DNA from: Patescibacteria group bacterium
GTDB lineage: Bacteria; Patescibacteriota; Patescibacteriia; UBA9570
Assembly: GCA_041665365.1 (NCBI GenBank)
Contig: JBAYIY010000009.1
Coordinates: forward strand, 1-61,723
Direction: 5' to 3'
Length of the DNA: 61,723 bases
A program made the translations under genes and the position numbers. The notes under the pieces are model-generated. The model saw only the letters and a program-made list of their open reading frames with translations. It was not told the DNA's origin and did not search any database. Of this stretch, positions 2,903 through 31,473 are shown piece by piece. Within the stretch, counting starts at the first letter, position 1. Every line of letters starts with the position of its first letter.

Positions 2903-2919
2903 AATGATTTTTCATATTG

Positions 2920-2992
2920 TCGGGGTACCGAGACTCGAACTCGGAACCTCACGAACCCGAATCGTGCGCCCTACCAATTGGGCCATACCCCG
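2920..2992 (-). tRNA. tRNA-Pro (anticodon CGG), 73 nt, CCA not encoded
   Basis: Folded by hand. Acceptor CGGGGTA/TACCCCG, D arm GCCC/GGGC, anticodon stem CACGA/TCGTG with loop TTCGGGT, T arm CCGAG-TTCGAGT-CTCGG, discriminator A. Confidence 0.9.
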
Positions 2993-3023
2993 CCTACATC
3001 TAAACCCGCGGAAACCTGAGGTC

Positions 3024-3052
3024 AGATTACCTAATTTATATTAATATGGCAA
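3024..3052 (-). promoter_or_regulatory. Candidate tRNA-Pro promoter TTGCCA-17-TAATCT
   Basis: Read on the minus strand. The -10 ends 31 nt upstream of the mature tRNA 5' end, consistent with an RNase P-processed leader. Confidence 0.4.
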
Positions 3053-3073
3053 CTTAACTTAAGTATCATTTAA

Positions 3074-5993: not shown

Positions 5994-5995
5994 AA

Positions 5996-9497: not shown

Positions 9498-9502
9498 GAT
9501 GA

Positions 9503-10012
9503 TTAATTAAGAATCCGGAGTAAATGAGTTAGAATGGTGAGCGGCGACGGTGGATCCCCTGGGATGCAATAGTTAACTGGGATCACATCGTTCACACCGT
9601 CAGCGCTGGCGTATGATCCGCGATAAATGCCGCCATTAATAGCATCGTCCCCCACCGCTACAACTATCTTAGGGTCAGGTGTCACGGCGTAAGCGTGCCG
9701 TAAAGCCTTGACCATATTACGCGTCACCGGCCCAGTTATCAAGAGCAGGTCGGCGTGTTTCGGTGAGGCGACAAAGTGGATACCAAACCGTTCCACATCA
9801 TAATAACTATTAGTGAGAGCCACCAGTTCTTGTTCGCAGGCATTATCAGACCCAGCATCAATTTGTCTGATCGCTAAAGAACCGTGAAATAATTTTTTGA
9901 CACGCTCATTTATGGCCTCGCCAACAACCAATAAATCTGGCTCAGCCACAGTGTTTGGTGCCGAAATAACAGTAGGTTTTGTTGTGATAATTTTTTTAAA
10001 AAGTCCAATCAT
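9503..10012 (-). CDS. NuoB/HycG-like hydrogenase small-subunit homologue with three of four [4Fe-4S] cysteines replaced by Asp
   Basis: 169 aa. GSDNACE sits where GSCNGCE is expected. SPKHADLLLITGPVT is conserved. AVGDDAINGG sits where AVGxCAxxGG is expected, and IPGDPPSP where IPGCPPRP is expected. Confidence 0.8.
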   Translation of the reverse strand: MIGLFKKIITTKPTVISAPNTVAEPDLLVVGEAINERVKKLFHGSLAIRQIDAGSDNACEQELVALTNSYYDVERFGIHFVASPKHADLLLITGPVTRNMVKALRHAYAVTPDPKIVVAVGDDAINGGIYRGSYASADGVNDVIPVNYCIPGDPPSPLTILTHLLRILN

Positions 10013-10046: not shown

Positions 10047-11477
10047 CTAATTTACTCTAAAATGGCAACCCAAGCTCTTGGTTCGCTGCAAGGCCGCCTG
10101 TAAAATCTGTTCCCCCACCGTGGCCATGTTGTATAACTCTGGCGAACCTTCCTGTTTAATGGTTTTTTTCAAAATCTGCATGGCGGCCAAGCCGGAGGCT
10201 AAGCCAGCCTTTGTGCGCACAATACCGCCCGCTTCCCACATGATATTCTGTAATTGTTGTTTTAAACCAATTAAAGTATCTGAATTATTATTGAATATTT
10301 TAACAGCATGATTATGATTAGGAATATTTTTGTGTTTTTTGGTCGGAGTGATAGATATAATATTTTTCGCGGCTCGAGTAGCAAATACCAAACACTCCAG
10401 TAAAGAGTTACTGGCCAGCCGGTTAGCGCCTTGCACACCGGTTCTGGCGACTTCACCGATGGCATATAAACCCGGCAAAGAGGTTCGACCGGCTGTGTCG
10501 GTAACAACACCACCGCACATGTAATGAGCGACCGGTGTAATTGGAATTAAATCTTTTTCTAAATGAAAATTATCTTTGGCTAAGGCTTTGTATATTCCAG
10601 GAAAGCGTTGTTTGAGAAAGGCTTTAGTTTCATGGCGGAAATCTAGATAGACCAAACCCTGGCGTTGTTGCCGAAATACTGCTCGGCTGACGTAATCACG
10701 CGGCTTTAATTCAGCGACGAATCTTTGGCCGAGGTGATTTACTAAATGAGCACCTTCACCCCGCAAGGCTTCTGAGAGTAAAAAGGGTTGTTGGCCAGGT
10801 AGATAATAAGCCGTGGGATGAAACTGCACAAACTCTAAATCAGACATTTTAGCACCGGCGCGAATAGCCATCGCCATGCCATCTCCGGTTACGACACTAG
10901 GGTTGGAGGTGTAGGGATAAATTTGACCGGCGCCACCAGTAGCCAGCACGACAGCATCAGCGAAATAATGGTTTTTATTGGTTTGCACGCCAATTACTCG
11001 ATTATTTTTTTTAATTACATCTAGCGCAAACTCCCATTCATGAATTGCAATAGCGTGATGTTTTTTTACAGCAGCAATTAAGGCTTGCTCAACAATTTTT
11101 CCGGTCATATCGGTAGCATGGACAATGCGCCGATAACTGTGTCCACCTTCTCGCCCTAAATCCAACTGGCCTTGTGACTTATTAAAAGCCACTCCCAATT
11201 TGATTAGCTCTTTAATCTGAGCCGGTGCTTCATTAACTAATAACTCGACAGATTTTTTTACATTATGATAAGACCCGGCTTTAAGAGTGTCTGCAATATG
11301 TTTACTAAAGTTGTCTTGCGGATCAAACACAGCGGCGATACCACCTTGGGCATAACTAGAACTACTTTCGATAATTTTATTTTTTGTAATCAAAGTGACA
11401 TGACTATGTTCAGCGCAATGTAAGGCGCAATACAAACCAGCCACACCACTACCAATAATAATTACCTCTCGCTTCAT
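10047..11477 (-). CDS. nadB: L-aspartate oxidase
   Basis: 476 aa with the FAD fold VIIIGSGVAGL, plus SSYAQGGIAA, HPTA and GGANRLASNSLLE-type motifs. Confidence 0.9.
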   Translation of the reverse strand: MKREVIIIGSGVAGLYCALHCAEHSHVTLITKNKIIESSSSYAQGGIAAVFDPQDNFSKHIADTLKAGSYHNVKKSVELLVNEAPAQIKELIKLGVAFNKSQGQLDLGREGGHSYRRIVHATDMTGKIVEQALIAAVKKHHAIAIHEWEFALDVIKKNNRVIGVQTNKNHYFADAVVLATGGAGQIYPYTSNPSVVTGDGMAMAIRAGAKMSDLEFVQFHPTAYYLPGQQPFLLSEALRGEGAHLVNHLGQRFVAELKPRDYVSRAVFRQQRQGLVYLDFRHETKAFLKQRFPGIYKALAKDNFHLEKDLIPITPVAHYMCGGVVTDTAGRTSLPGLYAIGEVARTGVQGANRLASNSLLECLVFATRAAKNIISITPTKKHKNIPNHNHAVKIFNNNSDTLIGLKQQLQNIMWEAGGIVRTKAGLASGLAAMQILKKTIKQEGSPELYNMATVGEQILQAALQRTKSLGCHFRVN

Positions 11478-12325
11478 GGAATAATGTCTAAAGAAATATC
11501 TAAGGCTTTAACTGAATGGGTGAGAAAACCCATTGAAATAACATCAACACCAGTTTTAGCATAGATCTTTATATTTGTCAGGTTAATATTACCAGATGCT
11601 TCAAGAATATATTTATTACGAAGTTTATGTTTGGCTAGCCAGTGTACGGCATAGAGCAATTTATTGGGTGAGAAATTATCTAATAATAAGATTTGAAATT
11701 GTGGATATTGCACAACCGCCCGTTTTAATTGAGCAATTGAGTCTATTTCTAATTCACACAATTGTTTACCGAAATTAGCCTTTTTTAGACTGGCATGGTC
11801 GAGTAAGGCTAAATGGTTATCTTTTACCATGATACCATCACCTAAGTGCAGGCGATGAGTTAAGCCGCCTCCTAAACTGACCGCTTTTTTATCTAAGCCA
11901 CCCCAAGCCGTTTTGCGGGTGGCGGCAATTTTTACTTTGTCCTGCACCATTTGCACACATTGTTTAGTCAGTGTGGCAATACCAGATAAGCGTTGTAAAG
12001 TGTTCAAAACTGTCCGTTCACATCTTAAGATACTTCTAGCATTACCTGATAATTTTAAAAGCACGGCTTTTTTACCTAAAGTTACTGAAATATTTTCACG
12101 TTTTAATAGCCAAATAACCTCATCTAAACCGGCTATAACACCCGGTTGTTTTTGAATAATTTGCGCCTGACACTGTTGGTTACGGGAAATCAATTTTTTA
12201 GAAGTATTATCATAGTAGGCATCACTGGCGAGCGCTCCAGCTATATAGCGTTCGACTTGCTCACGATACCACGGGTGCGTCATTGTTAATTCACTACTGC
12301 GATCGTAGTAGCTACTAATGTTCAT
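11474..12325 (-). CDS. nadC: Nicotinate-nucleotide pyrophosphorylase (quinolinate phosphoribosyltransferase)
   Basis: 283 aa with ERTVLNTLQRLSGIAT, ATRKT, HRLHLGDGIMVKDNH and LLDNF. Overlaps both neighbours by 4 nt. Confidence 0.85.
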   Translation of the reverse strand: MNISSYYDRSSELTMTHPWYREQVERYIAGALASDAYYDNTSKKLISRNQQCQAQIIQKQPGVIAGLDEVIWLLKRENISVTLGKKAVLLKLSGNARSILRCERTVLNTLQRLSGIATLTKQCVQMVQDKVKIAATRKTAWGGLDKKAVSLGGGLTHRLHLGDGIMVKDNHLALLDHASLKKANFGKQLCELEIDSIAQLKRAVVQYPQFQILLLDNFSPNKLLYAVHWLAKHKLRNKYILEASGNINLTNIKIYAKTGVDVISMGFLTHSVKALDISLDIIP

Positions 12326-13284
12326 AGGGCAATCATACGATCAATAGCTAGTTTGGCTTTTTGTTGGATGTCATTGGGTATAGTGATAGCAAATTGATTG
12401 TACAGTAAACTATCATAAACTTTTTGCAGGGTGATCTTTTTCATGTATTCACAGATAGCCGTGTCTTTTAGTGGGATATAAGTTTTTTGTGGCGCGGCTC
12501 GCTTCATGCGTTCAATAATACCAACTTCTGTGCCGATAATAAATTCTTTAGCCGGAGATTGTGTTACTTCTTTGATCATGCCGCTAGTAGATAAGACTTT
12601 GGCTGAGGTTAATTGTGCTTGATTCATCATATATAAACATTGACTGATACAGCCACATTCTGGATGTAATAAAATTTCAGCCTGAGGATGCTTAGCTTGT
12701 AAGGTTTTTAAATGTTCCGCTCGAAAGCCGGCGTGAACATGACACTCGCCTGGCCAGATATGTAAATTGTTTCGCTTGGTGATGCGTTGAATGTAAGCCC
12801 CTAAAAACATATCTGGACCAAATAATATTTCTTGATCGGCTGGAATACTTCGCACAATTTTAACTGCGTTAGATGACGTACAACAATAATCCGATAAGGC
12901 TTTAACTGCTGCAGTGGTGTTAACATACATAACAACTTTAGCTTTGGGATGTTCACTTTTCCACTGCACTAATTGATCGGCAGTGATCGAATCGGCCAAA
13001 GAACAACCGGCCGCTAAATCTGGCAACAACACGGTTTTTTCTGGAGCCAAAATTTTGGCGGTTTCGGCCATAAAATGCACTCCACAAAATACAATTGTTG
13101 CAGCCGTGGTGGTGGCAGCTTGCCGTGATAATTCAAGCGAATCACCAATAAAATCGGCCGCATCATAAATTTCCGGCAATTGATAATTATGCGCTAAAAT
13201 AATTGCCCGGCGCTCTTGTTTAAGCTGCAATACCCGTTCCAGCAATGACTGGTTCGATGATTGGTTGGATGCTTGATGGGACAT
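12322..13284 (-). CDS. nadA: Quinolinate synthase
   Basis: 320 aa with ILAHNYQ, FCGVHFMAETAKIL, GCSLADS, YVNTTA and HPECGC. The first 21 codons overlap the nadM 3' end; a TTG at codon 14 is an alternative start. Confidence 0.9.
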   Translation of the reverse strand: MSHQASNQSSNQSLLERVLQLKQERRAIILAHNYQLPEIYDAADFIGDSLELSRQAATTTAATIVFCGVHFMAETAKILAPEKTVLLPDLAAGCSLADSITADQLVQWKSEHPKAKVVMYVNTTAAVKALSDYCCTSSNAVKIVRSIPADQEILFGPDMFLGAYIQRITKRNNLHIWPGECHVHAGFRAEHLKTLQAKHPQAEILLHPECGCISQCLYMMNQAQLTSAKVLSTSGMIKEVTQSPAKEFIIGTEVGIIERMKRAAPQKTYIPLKDTAICEYMKKITLQKVYDSLLYNQFAITIPNDIQQKAKLAIDRMIAL

Positions 13285-13699
13285 AATGTTTCCAAATATC
13301 GTTATGTTGCTTGATCAATCGTCGAATCACTGTACCGTCAATGGACACACTCACGGCTGGATCCAACACAGGAATGCCCTGCTTTCTAAATAAGAGTTGT
13401 ACCAACCGATTGCCACTAATTACTTGATCGAAACCACTTGGGTAAGCAGCATACACGGTTTTCTTAACATGATCAACCCAATGGGCATCATCATGAATAT
13501 CCGGTATGGCAATAACAGGGATACCGGGTAAAACAATTTCAAGGCACTGTTTCCGTTCGGCAAAAGACAATGGATTATTAGTCGTACGCGCGTATTGACT
13601 GCTACCAATTCCCACTAGTATGGTACCGGAAAATTTTTTCAAGACAGATAAGTGACCAAGATGTAAAGGTTGGAATCGTCCAATAAATAATGATGTCAT
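13220..13699 (-). CDS. nadM: Nicotinamide/nicotinate mononucleotide adenylyltransferase, archaeal NadM type
   Basis: 159 aa. The N-terminus FIGRFQPLHLGHL is the (H/T)xGH nucleotidyltransferase motif of the NadM family. The protein is small and single-domain. Confidence 0.75.
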   Translation of the reverse strand: MTSLFIGRFQPLHLGHLSVLKKFSGTILVGIGSSQYARTTNNPLSFAERKQCLEIVLPGIPVIAIPDIHDDAHWVDHVKKTVYAAYPSGFDQVISGNRLVQLLFRKQGIPVLDPAVSVSIDGTVIRRLIKQHNDIWKHYVPSSIQPIIEPVIAGTGIAA

Positions 13700-13703
13700 A
13701 ATA

Positions 13704-14393
13704 TTATAAATGTGGTGGTAGAACTAATTTATGTTGGGCAGATTTTTGTAATTGCTTTATTTTCTCTACAACAGTTAGATTAGAATAATCTTTATCTTTT
13801 AAGACGCTATCGGCCATTTGATAAGTCATACCTAATTCTGTTTCATCTGTTTGGCCAGACCATAAACCAGCCGATGGGGCTTTGGAGATAATCTGCTCGG
13901 GTACACCCAATTGTTTGGCCAACTCCCACACCTGGGTTTTATATAAATGAGCTAACGGTGCAAGATCTACTCCCCCATCACCATACTTAGTAAAGTAACC
14001 TAACTCGAATTCAGTTCTGTTACCCGTTCCCACTACTAACCCACCTAATTCATTCGCCTGCATATACAAAACAGACATTCTTACTCGCGCCTTTAAATTA
14101 CCCAATGATAACGCTGAGATACTTGGCTCAATTTTTTGAAATTCATGAATAATAGGGTCAATATTAATTACCCTATTTGTTATTTTTAATTTACTAATTA
14201 CCAATTTAGCATCATCTAGATCTTGTTGAGTATTAGAGCCAGATGGTAAATAAAAAGAATAAATTTTATTAGTAGATATAGCTTTAGTTAGTAGATAAGC
14301 TACTACTGTTGAATCTACTCCACCACTCAAACCAATCACGGCCGGCTTATCATGTAAGTGTTTTTTTAAGAATGTTACGATTGGTTCAATCAT
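13704..14393 (-). CDS. nadE: NH3-dependent NAD+ synthetase
   Basis: 229 aa with the PP-loop GLSGGVDSTVVA, plus TGNRTEFELGYFTKYGDG and APSAGLW. Confidence 0.85.
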   Translation of the reverse strand: MIEPIVTFLKKHLHDKPAVIGLSGGVDSTVVAYLLTKAISTNKIYSFYLPSGSNTQQDLDDAKLVISKLKITNRVINIDPIIHEFQKIEPSISALSLGNLKARVRMSVLYMQANELGGLVVGTGNRTEFELGYFTKYGDGGVDLAPLAHLYKTQVWELAKQLGVPEQIISKAPSAGLWSGQTDETELGMTYQMADSVLKDKDYSNLTVVEKIKQLQKSAQHKLVLPPHL

Positions 14394-14812: not shown

Positions 14813-15422
14813 AAAACTTACCTAATAATTGGTTAAGATCAAATTGGACATCACTTAATTTACGATTAGCGTTAATAATTACCCAGTTAGCTTGTTGCTT
14901 GGCGTACTGCAAAAAGTACTCATGGACGGATTGATGGAACTCGAGATCAAAATCATCAAAGCTGTTCATGGTGTGATTAGTCTGCACCCGTTTACGTTCA
15001 ATGCCAATGGCCGGATCAATATCTAAATAGATAGTTAAATCTGGTGTTAAACCAGAGCGAGCGAAGTCTTCCATTTGGATAATTAGATTTTCCGGTTGTA
15101 AATTACGAGCACCAATTTGGTAGGCCAAAGTTGAACCGGTAAAACGATCACATAACACAGTGGTGTTTTTATCTAAGGTCGGTTTAATAATTTCAGCCAC
15201 GTGTTGCGCTCGATCAGCTAGAAATAATAATAGTTCAGCTCGGGTCGCTACTCGTTCTTCTAAAATAAGTTCTCTAATTATTTTACCAATTTTAGTACCA
15301 CCCGGTTCATGAGTAGTAATACTAGAGATCGAGTGCTGTTTTAAAAAATCACTGGTTAATTGGACATGTGACGATTTACCGCTCCCCTCACCACCTTCAA
15401 AAACTATGAATTTACCAGGCAT
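14796..15422 (-). CDS. tmk: Thymidylate kinase
   Basis: P-loop FIVFEGGEGSGKSS, DRF and the lid region. I chose the internal ATG at 15422 (MPGKFIVFEG). The 23 upstream codons in the track lie inside the peptidase gene. Confidence 0.88.
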   Translation of the reverse strand: MPGKFIVFEGGEGSGKSSHVQLTSDFLKQHSISSITTHEPGGTKIGKIIRELILEERVATRAELLLFLADRAQHVAEIIKPTLDKNTTVLCDRFTGSTLAYQIGARNLQPENLIIQMEDFARSGLTPDLTIYLDIDPAIGIERKRVQTNHTMNSFDDFDLEFHQSVHEYFLQYAKQQANWVIINANRKLSDVQFDLNQLLGKFYGFTH

Positions 15423-17049
15423 AAATTTTAGCTCCCATATTAAAATCTTCTTCGTAAACTCTCTCAGTGAATAATACCACAGGTTCAGCATCTAAACTAT
15501 AACCCTTCACCCAAGCTTGGCCGCGACTGGCCTGACTAAATAACACAGTACCATCGGATAAAGCGGTGACATCAATACTGCCAGTAAAATCACTACCAAA
15601 CGGTTGAAATGATTGACCAATTTGTGCGCCGGTTAGAGAAAATACTTTAGCCGTACCAACATCATTACCATTGGTGGTAACAACTAATTGATTATTAAAT
15701 ATTGCCAGATTACAACTGGTAATAGTACTGCTATGGCGAAATGGATTAAACTGATTTACTATCGTGCCACTCGTATCCATAGTCATCACCTTGGCCTTGT
15801 TAAGGTAATTACCACACAGATAAATAGTACCGTCTTTGATCACCATGTCTGTAGCGAGAAAGTTTGGTGGTGAAATAGTCCAGATTAATTCACCGATCAT
15901 ACTGTAAGATGAAATATTATAAGTATTTTTATCGGCAATAATAATTTGGTCGTTGGATACTGTTAAAGCACCAATTCGAATATCTGGCAGATCAAACTGA
16001 TTAATCTTTAACTGATTAATATTTTCTCCAGTTGCTGAGAATATTTTAACGTGATTACCACGAGCGGTAATGATATTGTCATTTTCAACAGCCAAATATG
16101 TCCGTTTAGCAGTATTTTCGCGATAAGGAAAAAATGATTTAGTAACTGAGCCACCGTACGACCATTGCGTGATCTCAGCATTGCTGCTGCCACTTTTCAT
16201 CGCCACAAACATTGGTACCGTAAAAAGATATGTATCCTTTGTAACAGTTCGATTCACCACAGTTTTGTTATTAAACCAATCTCGAGCTATAATTTTCACG
16301 TATAATTTCCCATCGGCGTAATCAGAAATATCAACTACACTTGATAGCACGTAAGTCGGATTGGCGTAATTTGAAATTGTCTGCCAAGTTTCATTATCAC
16401 TACTAACTTTAATACGAACGGATTTAATAGTACTACCCTTATCACCTATTGTGCCAGTGACAGACAAGGAATTTCCAATCACGGCTCCATTTTCTAAGTC
16501 TGGGATAAAGGTGGGTTTCCAAATATCTGCTAATAAATGTTCCGGAATAAAAGTAATTGGGTCGTACCAGTTGGCGGCTTCGGCTGGATCATGCACGTGG
16601 CCGTAATAGATCCACTCACCAGTGTAAGCCGCTTTGTTAATACCGAAATGCAAATGTACTGGCCACCCACCATTATTAACAGTGTCACCTAACACTCCTA
16701 TAACATCCCCCATCGCCACTGTTTGCCCCGGTGTGACTCTAATATCGGTTGGATCAAGGTGCCCATACAACGATACACCAATATCAGTGTGTTCAAGCAA
16801 AACCACTAAACCAAACTGACTACGCTCTTGAGCTTCCCGCACGATGCCATCAGCGGCTGCATAGACAGGCGTTCCGGCTGGCAAATCACCGCCGACATCA
16901 ACGCCCATATGATATAAACCACTACTAATTTCCTCACCTTGTTGTGTAGAAACATGCCAGGTGGGTAACGGATAGATAAAATTAGTGTCCGCCAAACTTG
17001 GCCAAGCGAAGCCAAGTAAGACAAGACTAATTATAAAGTGGCGCACCAT
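15412..17049 (-). CDS. Secreted M23 (LytM-type) metallopeptidase fused to an Ig-like segment and a repeat (beta-propeller-like) C-domain
   Basis: 545 aa. Signal-like N-terminus MVRHFIISLVLLGFAWPSLA. M23 motifs HMGVD (HxxxD) and VHLHFG (HxH). The C-terminal ~250 aa has ~45-aa periodic strands (VKIFSATGE, ISSYSMIGE, VMTMDTSGT, AKVFSLTGA, VKGYSLD). Confidence 0.75.
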   Translation of the reverse strand: MVRHFIISLVLLGFAWPSLADTNFIYPLPTWHVSTQQGEEISSGLYHMGVDVGGDLPAGTPVYAAADGIVREAQERSQFGLVVLLEHTDIGVSLYGHLDPTDIRVTPGQTVAMGDVIGVLGDTVNNGGWPVHLHFGINKAAYTGEWIYYGHVHDPAEAANWYDPITFIPEHLLADIWKPTFIPDLENGAVIGNSLSVTGTIGDKGSTIKSVRIKVSSDNETWQTISNYANPTYVLSSVVDISDYADGKLYVKIIARDWFNNKTVVNRTVTKDTYLFTVPMFVAMKSGSSNAEITQWSYGGSVTKSFFPYRENTAKRTYLAVENDNIITARGNHVKIFSATGENINQLKINQFDLPDIRIGALTVSNDQIIIADKNTYNISSYSMIGELIWTISPPNFLATDMVIKDGTIYLCGNYLNKAKVMTMDTSGTIVNQFNPFRHSSTITSCNLAIFNNQLVVTTNGNDVGTAKVFSLTGAQIGQSFQPFGSDFTGSIDVTALSDGTVLFSQASRGQAWVKGYSLDAEPVVLFTERVYEEDFNMGAKIYAW

Positions 17050-24071: not shown

Positions 24072-24848
24072 TTAGAATTGGGACAAAAACCTTAAATCAT
24101 TGTTCATAAAGTAACGAATATCCTTAATACCGTATTTCATCATAGCGAGCCGATCTATACCCATACCAAAGGCAAAGCCAGTATATTGGCCGGGTTTATA
24201 TCCAGCTGCGGCAAACACTTTAGGATGAATCATGCCGCAGCCTAACATTTCCACCCAACCGGTATGTTTACAAACCGCACAGCCTTTACCAGCGCAAGCC
24301 ACACACGAACAATCCGCTTCAAAACCTGGTTCGACATATGGGAAATAACCCGGTCTAAGCCTTACCTTGATATCACTATTCAGTAATTTCGACATAGCTA
24401 GTTTTAACATATATGTCAGATTGGCAATTGAGATGTCTTTATCCACCACAAAACCTTCCATTTGATAGAAAGTATGCTCATGTGAAGCATCAATGGCTTC
24501 ATTACGAAACACTCGGCCTGGCACAACCACACGTAATGGTGGTGTAAGTTTTTGCATGAGCCGAACCTGCATATTGGAAGTGTGTGTGCGCATCACTTCT
24601 TTTAAGCCGTCAGGGCGGTTAGTATCAAGATAAAAAGTGTCTTGCAAATCGCGCGCCGGATGAGTTTTAGGAATGTTTAAAAATTCAAAACAATAATCTT
24701 CCGTTTCACGCTCATTACCTTCATACACAGCAAAACTCATCGATCGAAAAACATCGACCAACTCGTTTTGTACTAAACGCAGCGGGTGAAGCTGACCAAG
24801 TTTGATAGCTTCTCCCGGTAATGATTGATCAATTAACTGGTTCTTCAT
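24072..24848 (-). CDS. pheS: Phenylalanyl-tRNA synthetase alpha subunit, short form (catalytic core only)
   Basis: 258 aa with HPLRLVQNE, HPARDLQDTFY, MRTHTS, FRNEAIDASHEHTFYQMEG and GFAFGMGIDRLAM. Confidence 0.93.
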   Translation of the reverse strand: MKNQLIDQSLPGEAIKLGQLHPLRLVQNELVDVFRSMSFAVYEGNERETEDYCFEFLNIPKTHPARDLQDTFYLDTNRPDGLKEVMRTHTSNMQVRLMQKLTPPLRVVVPGRVFRNEAIDASHEHTFYQMEGFVVDKDISIANLTYMLKLAMSKLLNSDIKVRLRPGYFPYVEPGFEADCSCVACAGKGCAVCKHTGWVEMLGCGMIHPKVFAAAGYKPGQYTGFAFGMGIDRLAMMKYGIKDIRYFMNNDLRFLSQF

Positions 24849-25242
24849 GGGTTGGTTGTCTTTGTAAACTGTATAAGAAGCCCTCTAACAAGCTAAAGAA
24901 TAACACGAGTAAGCCGGCCGTCATCCAGGTAAATAACTCATGAGCCGTTAAAACTAGTGACAGTAGAACAATGCAGGTGCAAAAAATCGCTTGACGAAAG
25001 GTTGGTAGCATTAAATGAAAAGCCACGACAGTTTGCTTGTGCCAGCGTTTTAAGACAATCCGGATCAATAAACCAAATACCACCATCACAGCGAATACCC
25101 AGCAGCCCAATGTGGCATAAAACAAACCAATTCCGATTGACCCGGTTTGTGTGGGGTCAATAAACTTAATTACAACCACCCAGGCGGCTAAACTAGCCAG
25201 ACCGGCTAAACTCATTAGAATTAAAAATCGGCGCACGGGCAT
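24829..25242 (-). CDS. Hypothetical membrane protein (four predicted TM helices)
   Basis: 137 aa and hydrophobic. A strong leaderless-type promoter lies directly upstream. No family recognised. Confidence 0.6.
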   Translation of the reverse strand: MPVRRFLILMSLAGLASLAAWVVVIKFIDPTQTGSIGIGLFYATLGCWVFAVMVVFGLLIRIVLKRWHKQTVVAFHLMLPTFRQAIFCTCIVLLSLVLTAHELFTWMTAGLLVLFFSLLEGFLYSLQRQPTHEEPVN

Positions 25243-25248
25243 GGTGAT

Positions 25249-25277
25249 AGAATAACAGAATCAGTTGAGATATTCAA
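25249..25277 (-). promoter_or_regulatory. Promoter TTGAAT-17-TATTCT, -10 ends 6 nt before the ATG at 25242 (leaderless-type)
   Basis: Base-by-base reading of the minus strand gives TTGAAT atctcaactgattctgt TATTCT atcacc ATG. Confidence 0.5.
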
Positions 25278-25282
25278 CTAAA

Positions 25283-28200
25283 CTATTTAAGGGCAGCATT
25301 GAATTGATCTGGTACGAAAACACCATGGTAAGATTTATCGGTAACAATGAATCTATCAAAGTAATTTATTAACTTCGTGTAAGTCTCAGGTGTAAGTTCA
25401 ACCCGCGTTGCAGCACAACGAACATACAATTTATCATGATCTTCTATATAAGTCAGGCCATTGGGTCCGCGAAATTTATCAATATCCGCATGGACACTCA
25501 TAACGTGTTTGACTTCTGTCACAAATTTGGAATAATCCCGCGGTAATTTATCCAAACCAAATTGATCTTGTTCGAATAATCTCATTTCGTGCGGTTCATT
25601 GGCTCGATCCAGCACAGCAAAAAATGACTCACGGTGAAACTCATGATCACTAGAACTTTTCAATTTAGTTTTATATTCAGTCATTAACTCATGATACAAT
25701 TTTTCGCTTAGTGGTGGATGATTACCTGTGACATTATGTAAATCCACCGTGACCTGACCATCGTGTAATCCAAACACCAAACCATTTGGGCTGACAATTT
25801 TATGGTTTTTATCGCTGTTAAGTAGAGTTTTTATATTATCGATAAAAGCACCATGATTTTGTGGTTCACCATTGCCCATGAAATGCTGACCTAAATCCAC
25901 ACTTTTTGGTTCAACTACAACCGGTATAGCCAATGGTTCAGCCACGCGACCAGCGGTTTCACCCGTCCACGATCCGCCACTCTCGGCTCGATAATGTTTT
26001 ACTAATTCTATAGACACAGCTCTTAATTCTGGTTTTTCATATAGCTCCTCAGCGGGTATTTCTTGTAATTCGGGAAACTGATCTGGATTACTATGAACAT
26101 AAGTATATAAACCTGAATCGATATATCGCGCAACACTTTGACCCGGACGCGGTTCTGCATAATCATTAACAAAATTAGTGATTTTCGGATTTACTTCAAC
26201 TGGTTCATGCGGTACAGGCACATCATGTTCATGGCCACGTTCATAAAGATAATCGTTCAAGTGTTCCGGAGCAATTTTTTGTTTAGTGGCGACATCATAA
26301 AACTCAACTTGTTTATGACCACCAACGTCATGCACTGCCACACTGATTTTTTCACTATCCTTAACACCCACATCAAGTAATTTTACATTATGGCCGTTAA
26401 CTTTTACTTCTGTAGAATTCAACAAATGTGACATCTCTCGATCGGATACTTGCCCTTTAATGGCATGAGAGACACCTTCTGTGTGGTGAACGATGTGAGT
26501 TAGATCAGCCGATTGAACAGGTGGTTCTGGTAAAATTGGACCGACAAATGGTATTGGAGTATGTCCACCTGGTGGAGGTATCACAACCGGATTTTCCACT
26601 GGATTAGGTTCAACGTGATCAACTGGTACAGATTCACTTTCCACCCGATGGGCGGCTAAAGATACTAATTCGTCACCAACAAAATAGCCAGCTACAGCAC
26701 CAGTGAAGGCTAGCGCGCCACGAACGCAGGCATGATAACGTTTTTTAGCAGTCGGTGCATCCGGTTCAAGCCGGGCTAAATCTTTAATATTTTTTAAAGC
26801 ACCAATATAGGATAAGGCTTGCTCGTATCGGGTGACGATTTCTTGCATAGCCCTATAATCAGTGGGTGATTTTTGTCTAAAATCATTGTCCTGTAATCGT
26901 TCTTTAAACTTATTCATTTCTTGTCGGCTGTTGAGCACAAAGTTGATCCAACTACCATTCATTGGTTTTCTCAATTCGATATCAAAAAATTTGACTCGCT
27001 TATTCTGTTCAGTAATTGACGTACCTTCAGCCCGGCTGATCAAAGCACGTGCTACTGTGTCGCCAAGTCTAGCGCCAGCCAAAGTTGTCATACCAACTCT
27101 TAAACCAGGCCACTCACGGGCAGCGATACCAATGGATGTAAACACCGCTGAAGTTGCCACAGCTTCTAATACTTCACTTTTATCACCAAATATTTCTTTT
27201 AAAATACGCGATGAAGATTGACTTTGGGCTTTTTCCTGAGCGGCGGTTTTATTCTCCATGTCAACTAAATTCGCCTGAGCTTGGGCAATTCGTTTGTATG
27301 GTTCGGCGACACGATCAAATTCAGCCTGGGCTCTTAATACCGCTTGATAATAAAAAGATTTTTGATCTTCTGATGCACTATAATAGTCTGCTTGTGCTTG
27401 CCTTAAATTATCTGTCTCTGTTTTACAATTATCATCTATTAACTTCCCGTAAATCTCTCCTTGTACATCAGCCTGTGTCAGTGCACCTTTGTCAACAAGT
27501 TCTTTCTCTTTTTGTGTCGCCAACAGCGCCGCGAGAGTTTCTAAAGTGGTTTTTAAAGTAGCTTCGGCTTGGCCTAGTGTCAGGTTACCATCAATGAACT
27601 TCTTTCTACTTTGTTTTATTTGGTTTAATAAAGTAGCCTCATGCCTGCTTTGCTCAGTGGCTTGATTCTGGGTGGTTCTTATTCTATCGGCCATTCTTAC
27701 TCCCGCCAAAAGGCCAATAGTTGGAATAGCACCGATTCCAGTCATGCTAAGTGCTACACCGCCGGCCGCAATAGCACCGAGCCTACCTACGGTTTTTAAA
27801 GTACTCCGTCCAGCGCGTTCTTGCGCGGCGGCTTGTTCAGTAATCAGCATGCGCTGCGCCACAATCACTTGCGCAACTCCTTCTGGACTAATACCAAGTT
27901 TTGTCGCCAAAGCAATAACTTCAGGCAAAGCCTTCAATTCAGTATCAGACTTATTAAGATTTTCAAGAGTAATTACACCAGCCAAGGCTTTGATTACATT
28001 AGTATCAGATTTAATCTCAGCTTGTTCCAAATATTGAGTATTTACTCCGGGTTTTTTAGCCTGCATTTCACGAACAATAGAACGATCAAATTGATCCATT
28101 TCAATTTTCGCTGGATCAAATGAAACAGGATAGTCATCGGGAGCAGTTTTGTAGGCTGTCAATTCAGGTTGACCTAGTTCTTTAAGTCGATCAAGAATTT

Positions 28201-29632
28201 TTGGGTTACGTTGAACAATTTTTTTAATCCAAATATCGTATATGTTAATCTGTCCGGCATCACGGGCATCGTCTAATATTTGATGTAAAGCCCATACATC
28301 TCCCAGTTCAGTGATTTCAATATCATCTTTACGCTCAAGAAATTTTTGTCTGAATTCAGGTAATACTCTAACAAATCTTTCATCAGCCTTTCGATCATTT
28401 AACAACCTAATCCAATCTTCAACACCAACTGCCTTCCAGGCTTCTAAATCCACTGGGTTAATTAACCCATTATCATAAGTATTAGCAAACGCCGTCCGCA
28501 TTAATCTCTCATTCTCTTTATAAGCTAATTTAAAAGCTTCAATTTTTACAACATCATAAGGAACCGGCAAAGGTTCAGTCAGATTACGTGCCGTGGTTAG
28601 ATACATGTCTTTATCCTTTATGATCAAATCCTCTAATGGATCTTTATCATCAGGGATAACAATAATACTACGATCTTTATCATCACCGGCAGTAACACTC
28701 TCATTCTTTCTTAGCTGCTCATTTATTTTATTAGTGGCTGTTTGCATGATTTGTTGTGTCGCAGTGTTAGTGTTGGGTTCATCATTTAAGATTTTTCCCA
28801 TCTCGGCTTCAGAGGTGTATAAATGAATTCCATTTGAAGTAATAACAATATCATCACCATCATCAAGTTCAACCCTTATTACAGCTTCATCACCAACTGT
28901 ATTAATTTTACCTAATAAATCAGTGTTTCTATCCGCATCGACGGTTTGTTTTTCCAGTTTATCGCTACCAGCAAAACGTCGATAAACTCTTGAATCACCT
29001 AAATTTCCAATAATGGCCGTTCTTTTACCATCAGCACGACGAACGATTTTTACAACGGTAGCGGCGGTACTGATCTCGCTACCGGATGGTCTGGCTTGAT
29101 CAACATTATCCTGTTTAATTCGGTCATTTATTTCGTTAAAAACATCCCGCAGCACAGCTTTATAGTCATCGATACTACGACAACTACTGAAATCAATAGT
29201 CTTAATAATATGGCGCGCCATAAGAGCGGCTTCACTGCCACCAACTGCCGTATGAACGCCATCAAAAATACCGTATAATTCCTTACTAGGCTCCATTAAT
29301 ACAACATCTTCGTTTTCATTTTTACCAGGATGTTCAGGGCCAGCTTCTGTTTTGTTACTAATCTTACGTAGGCGTTTTTCAGGATTAGCCACAGCATCAA
29401 TTTTCGTCTCGGCGGCGCGTTGTAAATCGGCGGCATGTTTGTCTGTTTCATACAGTTTTTTACTATCTTCAGGAGTAGCCACACCTCTATATTCACGTTG
29501 TTTTGCGGCAATATATCTACCTAACTCACGAATACCACCTTTAGCTCTGGCAGCGGACATCTCAGCAGAAAAACCAATTGGTCTTTTAGATTCAATTTTC
29601 TTTATTTCTGGTCGTGGCGTTGGGTCAGACAT
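25283..29632 (-). CDS. Giant (1449 aa) membrane protein: degenerate PP2C-like N-domain, helical/coiled-coil region with hydrophobic hairpins, Pro-rich linker, His-rich repeated C-domain
   Basis: A single uninterrupted ORF. PP2C-like motifs are NEDVV, IFDGVHTAVGG, LGDSRVY, ITSNGIH and DKDRSIIVI. TM-like segments are LGAIAAGGVALSMTGIGAIPTIGLLAGV and GALAFTGAVAGYFVG. The linker reads PVVIPPPGGHTPIPFVGPILPEPP. Confidence 0.85.
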   Translation of the reverse strand: MSDPTPRPEIKKIESKRPIGFSAEMSAARAKGGIRELGRYIAAKQREYRGVATPEDSKKLYETDKHAADLQRAAETKIDAVANPEKRLRKISNKTEAGPEHPGKNENEDVVLMEPSKELYGIFDGVHTAVGGSEAALMARHIIKTIDFSSCRSIDDYKAVLRDVFNEINDRIKQDNVDQARPSGSEISTAATVVKIVRRADGKRTAIIGNLGDSRVYRRFAGSDKLEKQTVDADRNTDLLGKINTVGDEAVIRVELDDGDDIVITSNGIHLYTSEAEMGKILNDEPNTNTATQQIMQTATNKINEQLRKNESVTAGDDKDRSIIVIPDDKDPLEDLIIKDKDMYLTTARNLTEPLPVPYDVVKIEAFKLAYKENERLMRTAFANTYDNGLINPVDLEAWKAVGVEDWIRLLNDRKADERFVRVLPEFRQKFLERKDDIEITELGDVWALHQILDDARDAGQINIYDIWIKKIVQRNPKILDRLKELGQPELTAYKTAPDDYPVSFDPAKIEMDQFDRSIVREMQAKKPGVNTQYLEQAEIKSDTNVIKALAGVITLENLNKSDTELKALPEVIALATKLGISPEGVAQVIVAQRMLITEQAAAQERAGRSTLKTVGRLGAIAAGGVALSMTGIGAIPTIGLLAGVRMADRIRTTQNQATEQSRHEATLLNQIKQSRKKFIDGNLTLGQAEATLKTTLETLAALLATQKEKELVDKGALTQADVQGEIYGKLIDDNCKTETDNLRQAQADYYSASEDQKSFYYQAVLRAQAEFDRVAEPYKRIAQAQANLVDMENKTAAQEKAQSQSSSRILKEIFGDKSEVLEAVATSAVFTSIGIAAREWPGLRVGMTTLAGARLGDTVARALISRAEGTSITEQNKRVKFFDIELRKPMNGSWINFVLNSRQEMNKFKERLQDNDFRQKSPTDYRAMQEIVTRYEQALSYIGALKNIKDLARLEPDAPTAKKRYHACVRGALAFTGAVAGYFVGDELVSLAAHRVESESVPVDHVEPNPVENPVVIPPPGGHTPIPFVGPILPEPPVQSADLTHIVHHTEGVSHAIKGQVSDREMSHLLNSTEVKVNGHNVKLLDVGVKDSEKISVAVHDVGGHKQVEFYDVATKQKIAPEHLNDYLYERGHEHDVPVPHEPVEVNPKITNFVNDYAEPRPGQSVARYIDSGLYTYVHSNPDQFPELQEIPAEELYEKPELRAVSIELVKHYRAESGGSWTGETAGRVAEPLAIPVVVEPKSVDLGQHFMGNGEPQNHGAFIDNIKTLLNSDKNHKIVSPNGLVFGLHDGQVTVDLHNVTGNHPPLSEKLYHELMTEYKTKLKSSSDHEFHRESFFAVLDRANEPHEMRLFEQDQFGLDKLPRDYSKFVTEVKHVMSVHADIDKFRGPNGLTYIEDHDKLYVRCAATRVELTPETYTKLINYFDRFIVTDKSYHGVFVPDQFNAALK

Positions 29633-29656
29633 AGGATTTTTTAAGGTTATTATTTA

Positions 29657-30583
29657 CTATTTGGTTTGATTTTTACCTTTAATCACTATCACCGTTCGGT
29701 CATCCTCTGTTTTATTGTTCGGACCAATCCGTAAGCCATCTTTGGATAACTGTAATAAACGATCGGCATTAACTTGGGCAGAGTCATCAGGGTTAATACC
29801 AGCTGCCAGATCGTTATGTGGCACAAGATCGGATATGCCATCAGTACATAACACTAGTGTATCACCGGCTTCTAGCACTTTTGTAACAATGTGTACTTCA
29901 TTTGCTTCTTGACCACCTAATACACTGGTAAGATTTAACATTTTATACAAGGTTCGTTCAGAAAATTTATTATCATCAAGAACATATTTTTTTTCGCTAT
30001 CCAATTCATCAACTGAACGTATTGTACTAAATAATCGATTTAACCTATTTATTTCTGCTAGTGTAATTGGTTTACCGGCTATATCTAATTGAGTTAAATA
30101 ATTATCATCGACTGATACTTGTAGTAACTCACTGGATTGTTTCTTGACATAAAAACGAGAATCACCAACAGACGCACAAATGGCTATTGTTTTATCCCCC
30201 AATTTTCGTATTATAACAACCGTCGCTGTGGTGGCACCTTCTGTCAAATCATCAATTATATGACCATCGGAAAAATACACAGCCTGTTCAATAATTTGGC
30301 GAATTGCTTTGATATCAGTGATATCGTCAGTCAAATTTTTATCTAAATATTGTGTAACCATGGCGCGGGCTAATTCGGCGGCAGCGCGGGCACCTGTAAT
30401 ACCACCGGCACCATCATAAACGGCAAAGAAACCATGTTCTGGATCGGCGGTATAAGCGTCTTCACACACGGTATGACCAGGGTCTGGTTCTTGGGCAATA
30501 CCAACATCAAACGGTTCTTTCTCCCTGCTTTCTGATTCAGGTAACGGTCTAGGTGGTTTTGGTTCGCGCTTTGGTTCAGACAT
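29657..30583 (-). CDS. PP2C-family (PPM) Ser/Thr protein phosphatase
   Basis: 308 aa with CEDAY, FFAVYDGAGG, ATTATVVII, VGDSRFYV, LCTDGISD and EDDRTVIVI. Confidence 0.88.
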   Translation of the reverse strand: MSEPKREPKPPRPLPESESREKEPFDVGIAQEPDPGHTVCEDAYTADPEHGFFAVYDGAGGITGARAAAELARAMVTQYLDKNLTDDITDIKAIRQIIEQAVYFSDGHIIDDLTEGATTATVVIIRKLGDKTIAICASVGDSRFYVKKQSSELLQVSVDDNYLTQLDIAGKPITLAEINRLNRLFSTIRSVDELDSEKKYVLDDNKFSERTLYKMLNLTSVLGGQEANEVHIVTKVLEAGDTLVLCTDGISDLVPHNDLAAGINPDDSAQVNADRLLQLSKDGLRIGPNNKTEDDRTVIVIKGKNQTK

Positions 30584-30586
30584 AGT

Positions 30587-30763
30587 TTAGGCTTGATGTA
30601 ACTTATCTAAAGTGTCTTTGATTTTATCGTGATCGATTTTGGCTACCACTCGCTTTATAACTTCATCTTGTTCAGTTTTTAAATCATTCAGTTGTGCCAT
30701 AAAATCGTCATAAATGCGATGAATCAATTTTATTTTTGCTTCCTCCTGTGGAGATAACTCCAT
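30587..30763 (-). CDS. Small (58 aa) predicted coiled-coil protein, below the ORF-track size cut-off
   Basis: Own translation: MELSPQEEAKIKLIHRIYDDFMAQLNDLKTEQDEVIKRVVAKIDHDKIKDTLDKLHQA. It fills the 30584-30772 gap exactly, and its stop lies 3 nt before the PP2C ATG. Confidence 0.55.
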   Translation of the reverse strand: MELSPQEEAKIKLIHRIYDDFMAQLNDLKTEQDEVIKRVVAKIDHDKIKDTLDKLHQA

Positions 30764-30772
30764 AAGTAGAGC

Positions 30773-31084
30773 CTATTTTTGCGACTTCAAAAACTCGACC
30801 GCTAAATCGGTGAGGGCGGTTTTAATCTTGTCGGCAAATTTTTCGGTAGTATTTTTGGTCAAAAAATCATTCACAGCTGTTTGATCAATTTTATCAGGAT
30901 TGGCAACTAATTCAGTAAATTGGCCAGCTTGCTCGTCGTTTAGTTCCTCCATAATAACCACTCCAATACGGCGATAGGCTTGTACCATTAATTGATCCTG
31001 AAGACTTTGTTTAAAATCGTCTGGCAAGGTATCTAATTTGGCCTCTTTCATTAGATTTAGCACGAATTCATTCACTGGATCCAT
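30773..31084 (-). CDS. Small acidic helical protein, DUF5663-like (family recalled from CPR genomes)
   Basis: 103 aa. The pattern LMKEAKLDTLPDDFKQSLQDQL...VIMEELNDEQAGQFTELV matches my memory of DUF5663. First gene after the 31127-31155 promoter. Confidence 0.6.
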   Translation of the reverse strand: MDPVNEFVLNLMKEAKLDTLPDDFKQSLQDQLMVQAYRRIGVVIMEELNDEQAGQFTELVANPDKIDQTAVNDFLTKNTTEKFADKIKTALTDLAVEFLKSQK

Positions 31085-31126
31085 ATATTTTATTATTTAT
31101 TTAGTAGATTCTTATTAACTTGATAC

Positions 31127-31155
31127 TTTATATAACATTTTTTTGAAAATGTCAA
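31127..31155 (-). promoter_or_regulatory. Promoter TTGACA-17-TATAAA heading the DUF5663-like/PP2C/giant-protein operon
   Basis: The minus strand reads TTGACA ttttcaaaaaaatgtta TATAAA. The -10 ends 42 nt upstream of the ATG at 31084. Confidence 0.55.
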
Positions 31156-31182
31156 TATTTTTTTGACTTATCCACAATAAAA

Positions 31183-31473
31183 ATGGCTTTATTTATTGAC
31201 TGGTTACTGTCTTTCCAGTACTCTATAGGCGCCATGAAATCACCATACCTTATGGCCATGGCTGTTTCTAGCGGAAACATACTTGGTCCTTTACTCCTAT
31301 TTGGAGGCATTGGTTACCTAATAAGTAAGCAAACTGGATCAAATATTTATGTGCTTGCGGGCATATTTGTTGCCTTTATCACATCAAACCTGTTAATTTT
31401 TACAACCACAAGAAAATTTCTTTCCTATTTACAACATGGCCGAGACAACGGACACACAACCGATCACAGCTGA
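31183..31473 (+). CDS. AtpZ/AtpI-like small membrane protein of the ATP synthase operon
   Basis: Two TM helices (ILGPLLLFGGIGYLI, VLAGIFVAFITSNLLIF) directly upstream of atpB. The start may instead be 31234 (MKSPYL...). Confidence 0.6.
   Translation: MALFIDWLLSFQYSIGAMKSPYLMAMAVSSGNILGPLLLFGGIGYLISKQTGSNIYVLAGIFVAFITSNLLIFTTTRKFLSYLQHGRDNGHTTDHS
31196..31224 (+). promoter_or_regulatory. Candidate atp operon promoter TTGACT-17-TACTCT, 9 nt before the internal ATG at 31234
   Basis: Reads TTGACT ggttactgtctttccag TACTCT ataggcgcc ATG. It competes with a weaker TTGAAA-17-ACTTAT at 31143-31171 that would serve the ATG at 31183. Confidence 0.4.

Follow-up and report, generated by a model that had tools for sequence, protein, structure and literature searches.

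The question raised by positions 25283 to 31155 of contig JBAYIY010000009.1, a stretch of Patescibacteria DNA from a groundwater metagenome (hereafter the window, meaning the whole 61.7-kb stretch that was analysed), is what a very large protein headed by a phosphatase-like domain is doing in a compact unit of four genes. The four open reading frames (ORFs) are co-directional and, like all features of the unit described here, lie on the minus strand. In gene order, they encode a 103-aa DUF5663-family protein that is acidic and predicted to be helical (30773..31084), a 58-aa protein, helical and coiled-coil-like, in which an IDH motif is invariant (30587..30763), a predicted 308-aa standalone PP2C/PPM Ser/Thr phosphatase (29657..30583), and a giant of 1449 aa (25283..29632). 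A prior sequence-only reading had described the locus as a promoter-delimited operon containing two tandem PP2C paralogues, one of which had acquired about 1100 extra residues with membrane hairpins. Our analysis suggests otherwise: the locus appears to represent a new and very narrow family of DUF5663-associated giants, in which the PP2C head is intact, split, ruined, or absent depending upon the lineage, with the window showing the split state.

An exhaustive HMMER search of 1.84 billion representative proteins with residues 340-1449 of the giant returned 13 matches, all of which come from Patescibacteria or groundwater; family members are uniformly named 'hypothetical protein' in the databases. 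Genomic context was recovered for most of these relatives and for three others from GTDB or metagenomes, which allowed the gene order to be read in 12 loci. A scan with an alignment of D1, one of the C-terminal domains of the giant, yielded one extra locus (L086); a GTDB scan with a DUF5663 alignment gave no confirmed match, and a metagenome scan with the 308-aa protein gave no match. An alignment of all giants was too divergent for deriving patterns, and the core of the new family was defined as residues ~560-1000 of the window giant. Found in the relatives were hairpin 1 followed by R..D, the motifs STAVF.G.GIAARE.P..R....AGAR.G and L.D..F....P.EY..LK, and a terminal GA..G helix, together with a DUF5663 gene upstream.

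Inspection of the loci revealed two gene orders. In the clade resembling Candidatus Kerfeldbacteria, a divergent atp operon is followed by genes encoding DUF5663 (103-118 aa), a helical protein of 56-70 aa, the giant (1080-2220 aa), a membrane protein of ~113-148 aa, and then by pheS and pheT. This order is present in L001, L005, L009, L012, L088, and L094, and the partial loci L002/L003, L004, L086, and L087 are consistent with it. In a distant branch of Patescibacteria metagenome-assembled genomes (MAGs; proteins P0014, P0016, and P0017, loci L089-L093), the gene for DUF5663 (114-117 aa) is followed directly by a head-less giant of 923-1193 aa, and the neighborhood differs, with secY, map, ruvX, and recO on one side and the Asp/Asn-tRNA synthetases on the other. 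The conserved pair is therefore DUF5663 and the giant, with the ~60-aa protein being a clade-specific third member, while the ~137-aa membrane protein is part of the pheST unit, because it also precedes pheS in more distant Patescibacteria lacking the module. Co-occurrence of the four genes was accordingly only partial: DUF5663 and the giant, plus the ~60-aa gene in one clade, were found wherever the 5' side was readable, whereas a separate PP2C gene is confined to the window and was detected in none of the related loci examined. The presence of the module also varies among close relatives, as one genome (L008), which is as near to the window as L009 by PheS and GyrB, has its atp operon (atpB) adjoining the 142-aa gene and pheS with no module in between.

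Where present, the module diverges quickly. Between the window and L012, the neighboring genes exhibit identities of 82% (PheS), 81% (GyrB), 74% (AtpB), 62% (the 137-aa protein), and 54% (PheT), compared with 46% for DUF5663, 35% for the 58-aa protein, and 28% for the giant. Thus, the three module proteins evolve far faster than the neighboring genes, as would fit a surface that is exposed or engaged in interactions. Module genes have a GC content of 0.33-0.41, versus 0.40-0.43 for their neighbors. PheS of the window is 73-82% identical to that of Patescibacteria MAGs, the nearest credibly named one being a Candidatus Kerfeldbacteria bacterium (L009), and we consider the locus a probable lineage-restricted module of groundwater Patescibacteria akin to this candidate phylum. 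It should be noted that four of the MAGs (L006, L007, L008, and L012) are titled 'uncultured Gammaproteobacteria bacterium', with PheS 73-82% and, in those loci that include it, GyrB ~81-83% identical to the window. These titles look wrong, given that both the gene content and the nearest named relatives are those of Patescibacteria.

The state of the PP2C head is a major variable within the family. Canonical heads are found in P0006, P0009, P0010, P0015, L002, L012, and L009, while that of P0013 (L001) is ruined, having GNAGEAKVF in place of GDSRVY and its second half gone, and P0007, P0008, P0014, P0016, and P0017 have no head. The window giant begins with a basic leader (residues 1-95; 29348..29632), which carries the family motifs AAA..GGI and K(I/V)(D/E)A(V/I)..PEKR (the R being invariant), and continues with a degenerate PP2C head (residues 96-330; 28643..29347) recognized by NCBIfam and the family alignment. 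Motifs I, II, GDSR, and XI are retained in this head, but the Asp of motif VIII, which in PP2C enzymes is a metal ligand equivalent to Asp239 of human PP2C-alpha, is changed to Asn (ITSNGI), even though (S/T)DG is present in all eight other heads aligned. Approximately 45-60 residues, among them motif VII and the flap, have been deleted as well. No Pfam family and no PDB PP2C matched the head at E<=1, and the NCBIfam Stp1 model detects it only at residues 105-233 (E 1.8e-10, 40.8 bits versus a cut-off of 230). Despite the missing library matches, its alignment leaves clear homology to the canonical heads, and it is probably a pseudo-phosphatase. PP2C is therefore an accessory module of the family rather than the essence of the system, since several members have a ruined head or none. 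The L009 orthologue (2625-9287; ~2200 aa) has yet another layout, in which a canonical PP2C lies mid-protein, after an N-terminal region of ~500 residues that has no counterpart in the other giants. This may be taken as a further sign of a modular cytoplasmic end in the giants.

In contrast to the attached head, the 308-aa protein scores above the Pfam cut-offs for PP2C_2 (53.8 bits; cut-off 24), PP2C (33.6; 20.3), and SpoIIE (26.2; 25), and its motifs are complete when aligned with the canonical heads and tPphA: CED (I), AVYDGAGG (II), VGDSRFY, LCTDGISD (VIII), and EDDRTVIVI (XI). Thus, as the sequence-only reading had it, one PP2C is canonical and the other is not. The 308-aa protein is a bona fide PP2C-family member, and it is presumably active as a phosphatase. 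Although it has the same domain and all of the catalytic motifs of Stp1/IreP/PrpC and tPphA, it is not an orthologue of Stp1/IreP, as it reaches 70.9 bits (E 1e-19) against the 230-bit equivalog cut-off of the NCBIfam model Stp1_PP2C_phos (NF033484). Its best PDB PP2C relative is tPphA (2j82/5d2u; 57 bits, E 2e-14), whereas it aligns over the whole domain with the giant heads of P0009 and P0006 at 111-114 bits and 32-33% identity, making it about twice closer to these heads by bit score. Three family-specific features are shared with the heads: an insertion past the T.D(H) motif (RLFSTIRSVDEL, compare RKFANVTDPATEL; RKFANV...EL type), the C-terminal motif SKxGxRxGPxxKxxDDRT, and a Pro/Lys/Glu-rich N-terminal tip (MSEPKREPKPP, compare MAEPKPEKPP in L002). 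This tip is all that is kept of the ~80-residue basic leader of the giants. Because the 308-aa protein shares these three head-specific features and lacks the leader, we place it as a detached member of the head clade, i.e., a paralogue of the giants' heads and not their ancestor. An indexed search of 5.8 billion proteins with the 308-aa PP2C (E<=1e-10) returned only itself, a result that at this threshold excludes a close standalone relative.

The claim that the two phosphatase-domain proteins are paralogous was therefore upheld, given that they have giant-type N-terminal tips, the family insertion, and the C-terminal motif in common, while the proposed direction of change was reversed: the fused giant is ancestral and the 308-aa gene a lineage-specific duplicate, so that it is the small gene that is the novelty and not the additional ~1100 residues. 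Following the duplication, either the attached copy decayed or its decay was tolerated thanks to the free copy. At the DNA level, the 308-aa gene and the 5' part of the giant gene retain marginal collinear similarity, with 16/18 nt matching at the start codons and 18/22 nt once more.

We also examined the boundaries of the unit. Gaps of 9, 3, and 24 nt separate the four ORFs, and a sigma-70-type promoter (31127..31155; TTGACA at 31155-31150, a 17-nt spacer, and TATAAA at 31132-31127) is located ~43 nt 5' of the DUF5663-gene start codon, all of which can be read directly in the sequence just as previously described. A TTGAC(A/T)-17-TATA(A/T)(A/T/G) promoter likewise occurs ~60-80 nt 5' of the DUF5663 start in L001, L002, L005, and L012. 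As the DUF5663 proteins of these four loci are just 45-51% identical, promoter conservation over such divergent loci is beyond chance. The TATAAA box went undetected in a generic promoter scan solely because that scan demands T at position 6 of the -10 element. The same scan reported seven minus-strand matches of 9-10/12 within the unit (best at 30237-30210), contrary to the earlier statement that there are no internal promoter-like boxes. These internal matches carry no weight, because the regional total of 20 equals the expectation from shuffles (23.3 +/- 4.2). A perfect DnaA-box consensus is located at 31168-31176 (TTATCCACA on the plus strand, TGTGGATAA on the minus strand), between the atp operon and the DUF5663 promoter, and is retained at the equivalent site in L001, L012, and L008. 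The window contains two copies of this box, which is not above chance by count, and the GC skew has no origin-like switch at this position.

At its 3' end, the unit is followed by the genes for the 137-aa membrane protein, pheS, and pheT, and then by gyrB, nusG, L11, and L1, while its 5' side faces the divergent ATP-synthase operon. Directly beyond the module lies an extended -10 promoter (element 25243..25257), whose TGtTATTCT box of the TGnTAnnnT type (25257-25249) ends exactly 6 nt ahead of the ATG of the next gene (25242). The distance of 6 nt between box and ATG implies a leaderless mRNA for the 137-aa/pheS/pheT unit. A TGnTAnnnT box at the identical 6-nt spacing is present in L001, L004, L005, L009, and L012, as well as in the module-less L008, and this geometry supports the predicted 3' boundary. 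Thus, the downstream promoter formerly placed at 25249-25277 persists as a conserved extended -10 element, although it is weak when scored as a -35/-10 pair, and the unit can be regarded as bounded on both sides by promoters that are conserved among loci. A scan found no terminator-like site after the giant, and read-through into the 137-aa/pheS/pheT unit is possible. The assembly itself is sound: one groundwater run yielded an independent 13.4-kb contig with identical sequence over 24800-31400, and contigs from a second sample span both gene junctions with no differences, so the gene arrangement is real and an assembly artefact is excluded. The giant and the following gene of L001 are separated by a 104-nt spacer (15400-15503) that includes a GC-rich self-complementary stretch, gggagaccccgg...ccccgaggctccc, which is not found in the other loci and could be a terminator or an inserted element. 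The 137-aa gene of the window overlaps pheS by 20 nt (24829-24848). PheS itself (24072-24848, minus strand) is 258 aa and lacks the ~85-residue N-terminal coiled-coil domain Phe_tRNA-synt_N that is found in the 338-347-aa PheS of the closest relatives L012, L088, and L094; no such sequence was found elsewhere in the window.

The label 'DUF5663-like' for the first gene product is supported by a precomputed tag and by the orthologues, while being below threshold for the window protein. The latter carries a precomputed PF18908.7 tag, yet has no match at E<=1 in current Pfam, in which the gathering threshold is 23.7 bits; the L001 orthologue scores 16.4 bits. Precomputed PF18908 matches (E<=1e-5) exist for the orthologues in L088, L089, L090, L092, and L094, hhalign ties the DUF5663 proteins of the clade to the 118-aa protein of L009 (probability 98%), and the window protein is 45-51% identical to its orthologues. 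In L001, L002, L005, L009, L012, L088, L094, and L089-L093, this gene immediately precedes either the giant or the ~60-aa gene. PF18908 is not mentioned in any paper of the literature searched, and its link to a giant partner appears to be undescribed before now. The 58-aa protein is 41-49% identical to its 60-70-aa orthologues; the ~60-aa gene is present in L001, L002, L005, L009, L012, L087, L088, and L094, and absent from the distant branch. Its family matches in Pfam and NCBIfam are all sub-threshold, including one of 17.1 bits (E 0.004; cut-off 31.9) to a model named 'addiction module component'. Neither small protein has a STAS or kinase match in Pfam or NCBIfam.

The giant as a whole matches no Pfam family and no PDB sequence, and about three quarters of it is without known relatives. 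It is collinear with its 1621-aa orthologue from L001 (~24% identity), and its N-terminus does not resemble a signal peptide. Downstream of the head is a variable helical region (residues 331-545; 27998..28642) with no family assignment, which contains one ~90-aa module ending in W..(A/V)G..DW(I/L); P0009 and L002 have two copies of this module. The next region, as delimited by an alignment of 11 members, is a conserved all-helical core (residues 546-1000; 26633..27997). The best matches of P0014, P0016, and P0017 fall at residues 566-941, within the core, which is the only part of the giant common to the distant head-less branch; together with the DUF5663 partner, it constitutes the only universal part of the system. 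The AlphaFold2 model of the core is all-helical, with helices of up to 58 residues and a mean predicted local distance difference test (pLDDT) score of 63.6, and a coiled coil is predicted between the hairpins. Foldseek found no relative of the core in the PDB, nor did PDB profile searches.

Three segments of the core are candidates for membrane contact. Hairpin 1 (residues 615-646; 27695..27790) is a Gly/Ala-rich hydrophobic hairpin and putative membrane anchor with a Kyte-Doolittle peak of 1.72 and a central Pro/Gly turn; it is flanked on both sides by K/R-rich sequence in 11/11 members and is followed by the invariant R..D. Hairpin 2 (residues 819-852; 27077..27178) is amphipathic and coincides with the STAVF motif given above, the best-conserved motif of the family. 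Finally, a weak transmembrane helix 3 (residues 968-992; 26657..26731) carries the GA..G motif and has a K/R-rich N-flank and an acidic C-flank. Throughout the Kerfeldbacteria-like clade, 3-6 K/R precede helix 3 and 0-1 follow it, which fits an N-in/C-out topology, and in L012 the helix is a clean hydrophobic stretch of 19 residues (+1.2 kcal/mol on the Hessa scale). We infer that the ~1000 N-terminal residues would be cytoplasmic, with monotopic or re-entrant hairpins, followed by a single pass and ~430 C-terminal residues on the outside.

Following the core is a Pro-rich low-complexity linker (residues 1001-1045; 26498..26632), apparent from composition and alignment, which is 20-120 residues long in relatives; Pro accounts for 11% of residues 1000-1250, and pLDDT is <50 where the C-terminal model starts. 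The remainder is predicted to fold into several domains (mean pLDDT 79; 347/420 residues >=70). D1 (residues 1046-1133; 26234..26497; pLDDT 70-88) is mixed alpha/beta and has the motifs GEG.SHAL.GQ, TKV...G..V.L.D.GV, GHK...(F/Y)D, and YLY, with a mean column identity of 66% in its alignment. The start of D1 (H.V..GEG.SHAL..Q ... LL; strand-helix-helix-strand) had suggested LysM, an idea that was dropped, as no LysM or wall-binding Pfam family matched even at E<=10. D1 is followed by the helical D2 (residues 1147-1220; 25973..26194; model residues 120-189, pLDDT 77-91) and by two copies of a C-terminal alpha/beta module (PNGL.F ... L.VD ... L.E.LY..L) at residues 1247-1345 (25598..25894; pLDDT 80-96) and 1346-1449 (25286..25597; AlphaFold2 and hhalign). 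The copies are tandem duplicates according to hhalign (probability 99.5%, E 3e-22), even though BLASTP gave no alignment between them; two copies are also present in P0007, P0008, and L012, while P0006, P0009, P0010, and P0013 have one. The C-terminal domains had been described as unassigned, and they stayed so: they have no relative in Pfam or by PDB profile search, the PDB profile searches returned only noise (SK-channel calmodulin-binding helices and a prion Gly-rich stretch; E >=0.09), and Foldseek with both models against the PDB and with the C-terminal model against BFVD gave nothing at E<=0.001, the query-normalised TM-scores being <=0.19. Likewise, the C-terminal regions of the two family branches have no detectable homology to one another (hhalign probability 0.2%).

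From these results, we tentatively favor a reading in which the giant is a scaffold or receptor anchored in the membrane, its cytoplasmic heads being exchangeable, and is served in this genome by a detached PP2C. The helical core would fix the giant in the cytoplasmic membrane through its Gly/Ala-rich hairpins and the one weak transmembrane helix. The N-terminal part, which we take to be cytoplasmic because there is no signal peptide, would act as an exchangeable head and, in most members, bring the PP2C phosphatase to the membrane, while the clade-specific C-terminal domains on their Pro-rich stalk would probably be extracellular and bind either a host surface or the envelope of the cell itself, so that the phosphatase would be linked to their binding partner. 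The conserved core or the leader may have DUF5663 and, in this genome, the 58-aa protein as cytoplasmic partners. In the window genome, catalysis would have been passed to the co-transcribed free 308-aa paralogue, and the attached head, a probable pseudo-phosphatase, might possibly have been kept as a partner to which the free enzyme docks or with which it dimerises. Regulation of PP2C proteins through dimerisation has a precedent in RsbU and SpoIIE.

A number of observations weigh against this reading. The head-less members and the ruined head of L001, which has no adjacent PP2C, show that the module works without a phosphatase, which means that the family cannot have phosphatase signalling as its core function. 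In the operon, no gene for a kinase or for an FHA, STAS, or anti-sigma protein had been noticed, and none was found in the entire 61.7-kb window (Pfam on ORFs >=100 aa; kinase-motif regular expression in six frames), nor is there an adjacent STAS antagonist or HATPase_c anti-sigma kinase of a partner-switching module in the unit or window. Co-transcription of the four genes is suggested by spacing and promoters alone. In a crude neighbor-joining tree, the 308-aa protein is not the sister of the neighboring giant's head; because of this and the near loss of DNA similarity, either the duplication would be old or the head imported from another allele, and an in-place tandem duplication is not proven. 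The membrane segments are also weakly hydrophobic. Their approximate Hessa sums (with literature values for the scale) are +2.3, +6.3, and +5.0 kcal/mol for hairpin 1, hairpin 2, and helix 3, respectively, compared with -1.8 to +1.3 kcal/mol for the transmembrane helices of the neighboring 137-aa protein. Helix 3 of the window giant contains Asp-Glu, and pLDDT is <50 at hairpin 1. Thus, the membrane hairpins of the sequence-only reading are still plausible, although membrane insertion, and above all an outside C-terminus, should be regarded as unproven.

We considered how well other explanations account for the same observations. The giant might be a purely structural protein of the surface or envelope, such as an adhesin, a tether, or a cell-wall or S-layer anchor, with the PP2C head as a dispensable passenger and no signalling at all. 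This would explain why members with no head or a ruined one retain the remaining module, why the C-terminal domains are clade-specific and carried on a Pro-rich stalk, and why a protein only 28% identical where PheS is 82% identical can be absent from a close relative (L008). Nevertheless, we find it unlikely, as it would be unusual for an adhesin to have ~1000 residues, including its best-conserved core, in the cytoplasm or membrane, the protein lacks a signal peptide and a sortase motif as well as any known adhesin, LysM, or SLH domain, and the canonical heads in at least seven lineages plus the intact copy in the window argue that the phosphatase is selected where present. If instead the weak hydrophobicity of the segments and the acidic residues in helix 3 of most members are taken at face value, the giant could be a wholly cytoplasmic or peripheral coiled-coil scaffold for division, shape, or localisation, with monotopic hairpins on the inner face, its C-terminus inside, and the Pro-rich segment as a flexible linker. 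The all-helical prediction for the core with its long helices, the two small, soluble, helical partners, and the positive charge on both flanks of hairpin 1, as for a monotopic hairpin, all agree with such a scaffold. The clean transmembrane helix 3 of L012, the charge asymmetry of helix 3, which obeys the positive-inside rule (N-in/C-out) in the Kerfeldbacteria-like clade, and the extreme divergence and clade-wise swapping of the C-terminal domains, which are more typical of exposed proteins, make it unlikely too in our view.

Two further possibilities fare worse. That the locus is a four-gene Ser/Thr-phosphatase signalling operon, with two PP2C paralogues acting on a kinase pathway and a giant grown from a small PP2C, is what the co-directional, tightly spaced genes under one promoter and the PP2C-type sequence of both proteins would suggest by themselves. 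The arrangement is seen in the window alone, the architecture of the giant predates the small gene, the giant carries a degenerate head, and the window contains no kinase or phospho-binding partner, so this explanation is improbable, having been largely refuted by synteny. About equally improbable is a conflict or toxin system, in which Gly-zipper-like hairpins form a pore or lesion, the small proteins provide chaperone or immunity functions, and the variability of the ends stems from an arms race with phage or competitors. The small-xxx-small pattern of the Gly/Ala-rich hairpins, the rapid evolution with presence/absence variation, and the sub-threshold 'addiction module component' resemblance of the 58-aa protein could be read this way. 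Yet the PADLOC defence models matched neither DUF5663, the 58-aa protein, nor the giant and gave only noise for PP2C (E 0.0097-0.04), no toxin domain was found with Pfam or NCBIfam, the GC content of the module is similar to that of its neighbors, and in two clades the module occupies a fixed syntenic position amid housekeeping genes rather than mobile or island DNA.

The favored reading of a membrane-anchored scaffold or receptor can also be compared with known PP2C proteins. By order of parts, the nearest is PstP (Rv0018c) of Mycobacterium tuberculosis, in which a cytoplasmic PP2C is followed by a juxtamembrane segment, a transmembrane helix, and an extracellular C-terminus, an order that is only predicted for the giant. 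The catalytic domain of PstP comprises 237 aa and its extracellular domain 191 residues, with one transmembrane helix in the protein (PMC3052367); a PDB search with the 308-aa protein retrieved, among others, the PstP catalytic domain (1txo, 2cm1; E ~1e-5). However, the giant is three times larger, has a helical core of ~650 residues with two hairpins between the PP2C and the putative helix, and ends in unrelated domains; its head is degenerate, its family persists without PP2C, and there is no pknA/pknB/FHA/rodA/pbpA neighborhood around it. SpoIIE of Bacillus is also a large multi-domain membrane PP2C, and its Pfam model has a match in the 308-aa protein, located in the C-terminal part. Since the PP2C of SpoIIE is C-terminal and its 10 transmembrane helices are N-terminal, its domain order is opposite to that of the giant; moreover, no SpoIIAA/SpoIIAB partners are encoded in the window, and there is no sequence relation beyond PP2C. 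Eukaryotic TAB1 is a PP2C-fold pseudo-phosphatase, and the window head, having lost a metal-ligand residue, may by analogy be a binding module, with the two being related by fold family only. The literature searched contained no paper that connects giants of Patescibacteria with PP2C.

Outside of the locus, several other features of the window deserve mention. At 3074-10012 on the minus strand is a complex-I/Mbh-like membrane module, which is unexpected in a small Patescibacteria genome and includes a fused 30-kDa/49-kDa subunit, two Mrp-antiporter-type subunits, and NuoH-like and NuoB-like subunits. Five NAD-synthesis-type genes follow on the same strand (10047-14393), encoding a nadB-like flavoprotein, nadC, nadA, a cytidylyltransferase-like (nadD-type) protein, and nadE, after which come dUTPase and thymidylate kinase. 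The NAD-synthesis genes are of interest given that the Patescibacteria lineage is usually described as auxotrophic. In addition, a 475-aa Cas4-like + RNase_H_2 (RecB-type nuclease) protein adjoins a 121-aa stand-alone response-regulator receiver (1093-2888, minus strand), with a tRNA gene at 2920-2992.

A large share of the bacteria in groundwater are Patescibacteria (the candidate phyla radiation, CPR), whose genomes are tiny and whose lineage-specific proteins are mostly unannotated. Within this setting, we consider the evolutionary series of heads and the conserved pairing with DUF5663 to be both solid and new, while the function is what we infer from them. A role in host interaction or envelope signalling, as proposed in the sequence-only reading, is a conjecture. 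A bolder version of it, which we judge unlikely, is that DUF5663 and the core form a Patescibacteria-specific envelope-spanning device with plug-in ends, in which a cytoplasmic effector head, be it PP2C, a different domain as in L009, or missing altogether, would be coupled by way of a coiled-coil core with hairpin anchors to fast-evolving, clade-specific extracellular domains in contact with the host or the wall of the cell itself. The window would then hold a receptor-phosphatase that has been split, one part being a pseudo-enzyme scaffold and the other a free catalytic subunit. Irrespective of this, DUF5663 gains its first genomic association, domains that are confidently predicted to fold are supplied without known structural relatives, and the family offers a natural experiment in which a fused enzyme domain becomes a pseudo-enzyme in the presence of a free paralogue. 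Should the C-terminus lie outside, the family would be a candidate for sensing the envelope or host contact in bacteria that have so far resisted cultivation, and if the envelope-device reading were true, it would provide a first handle on trans-envelope signalling in episymbiotic, ultra-small bacteria without obvious nearby kinases.

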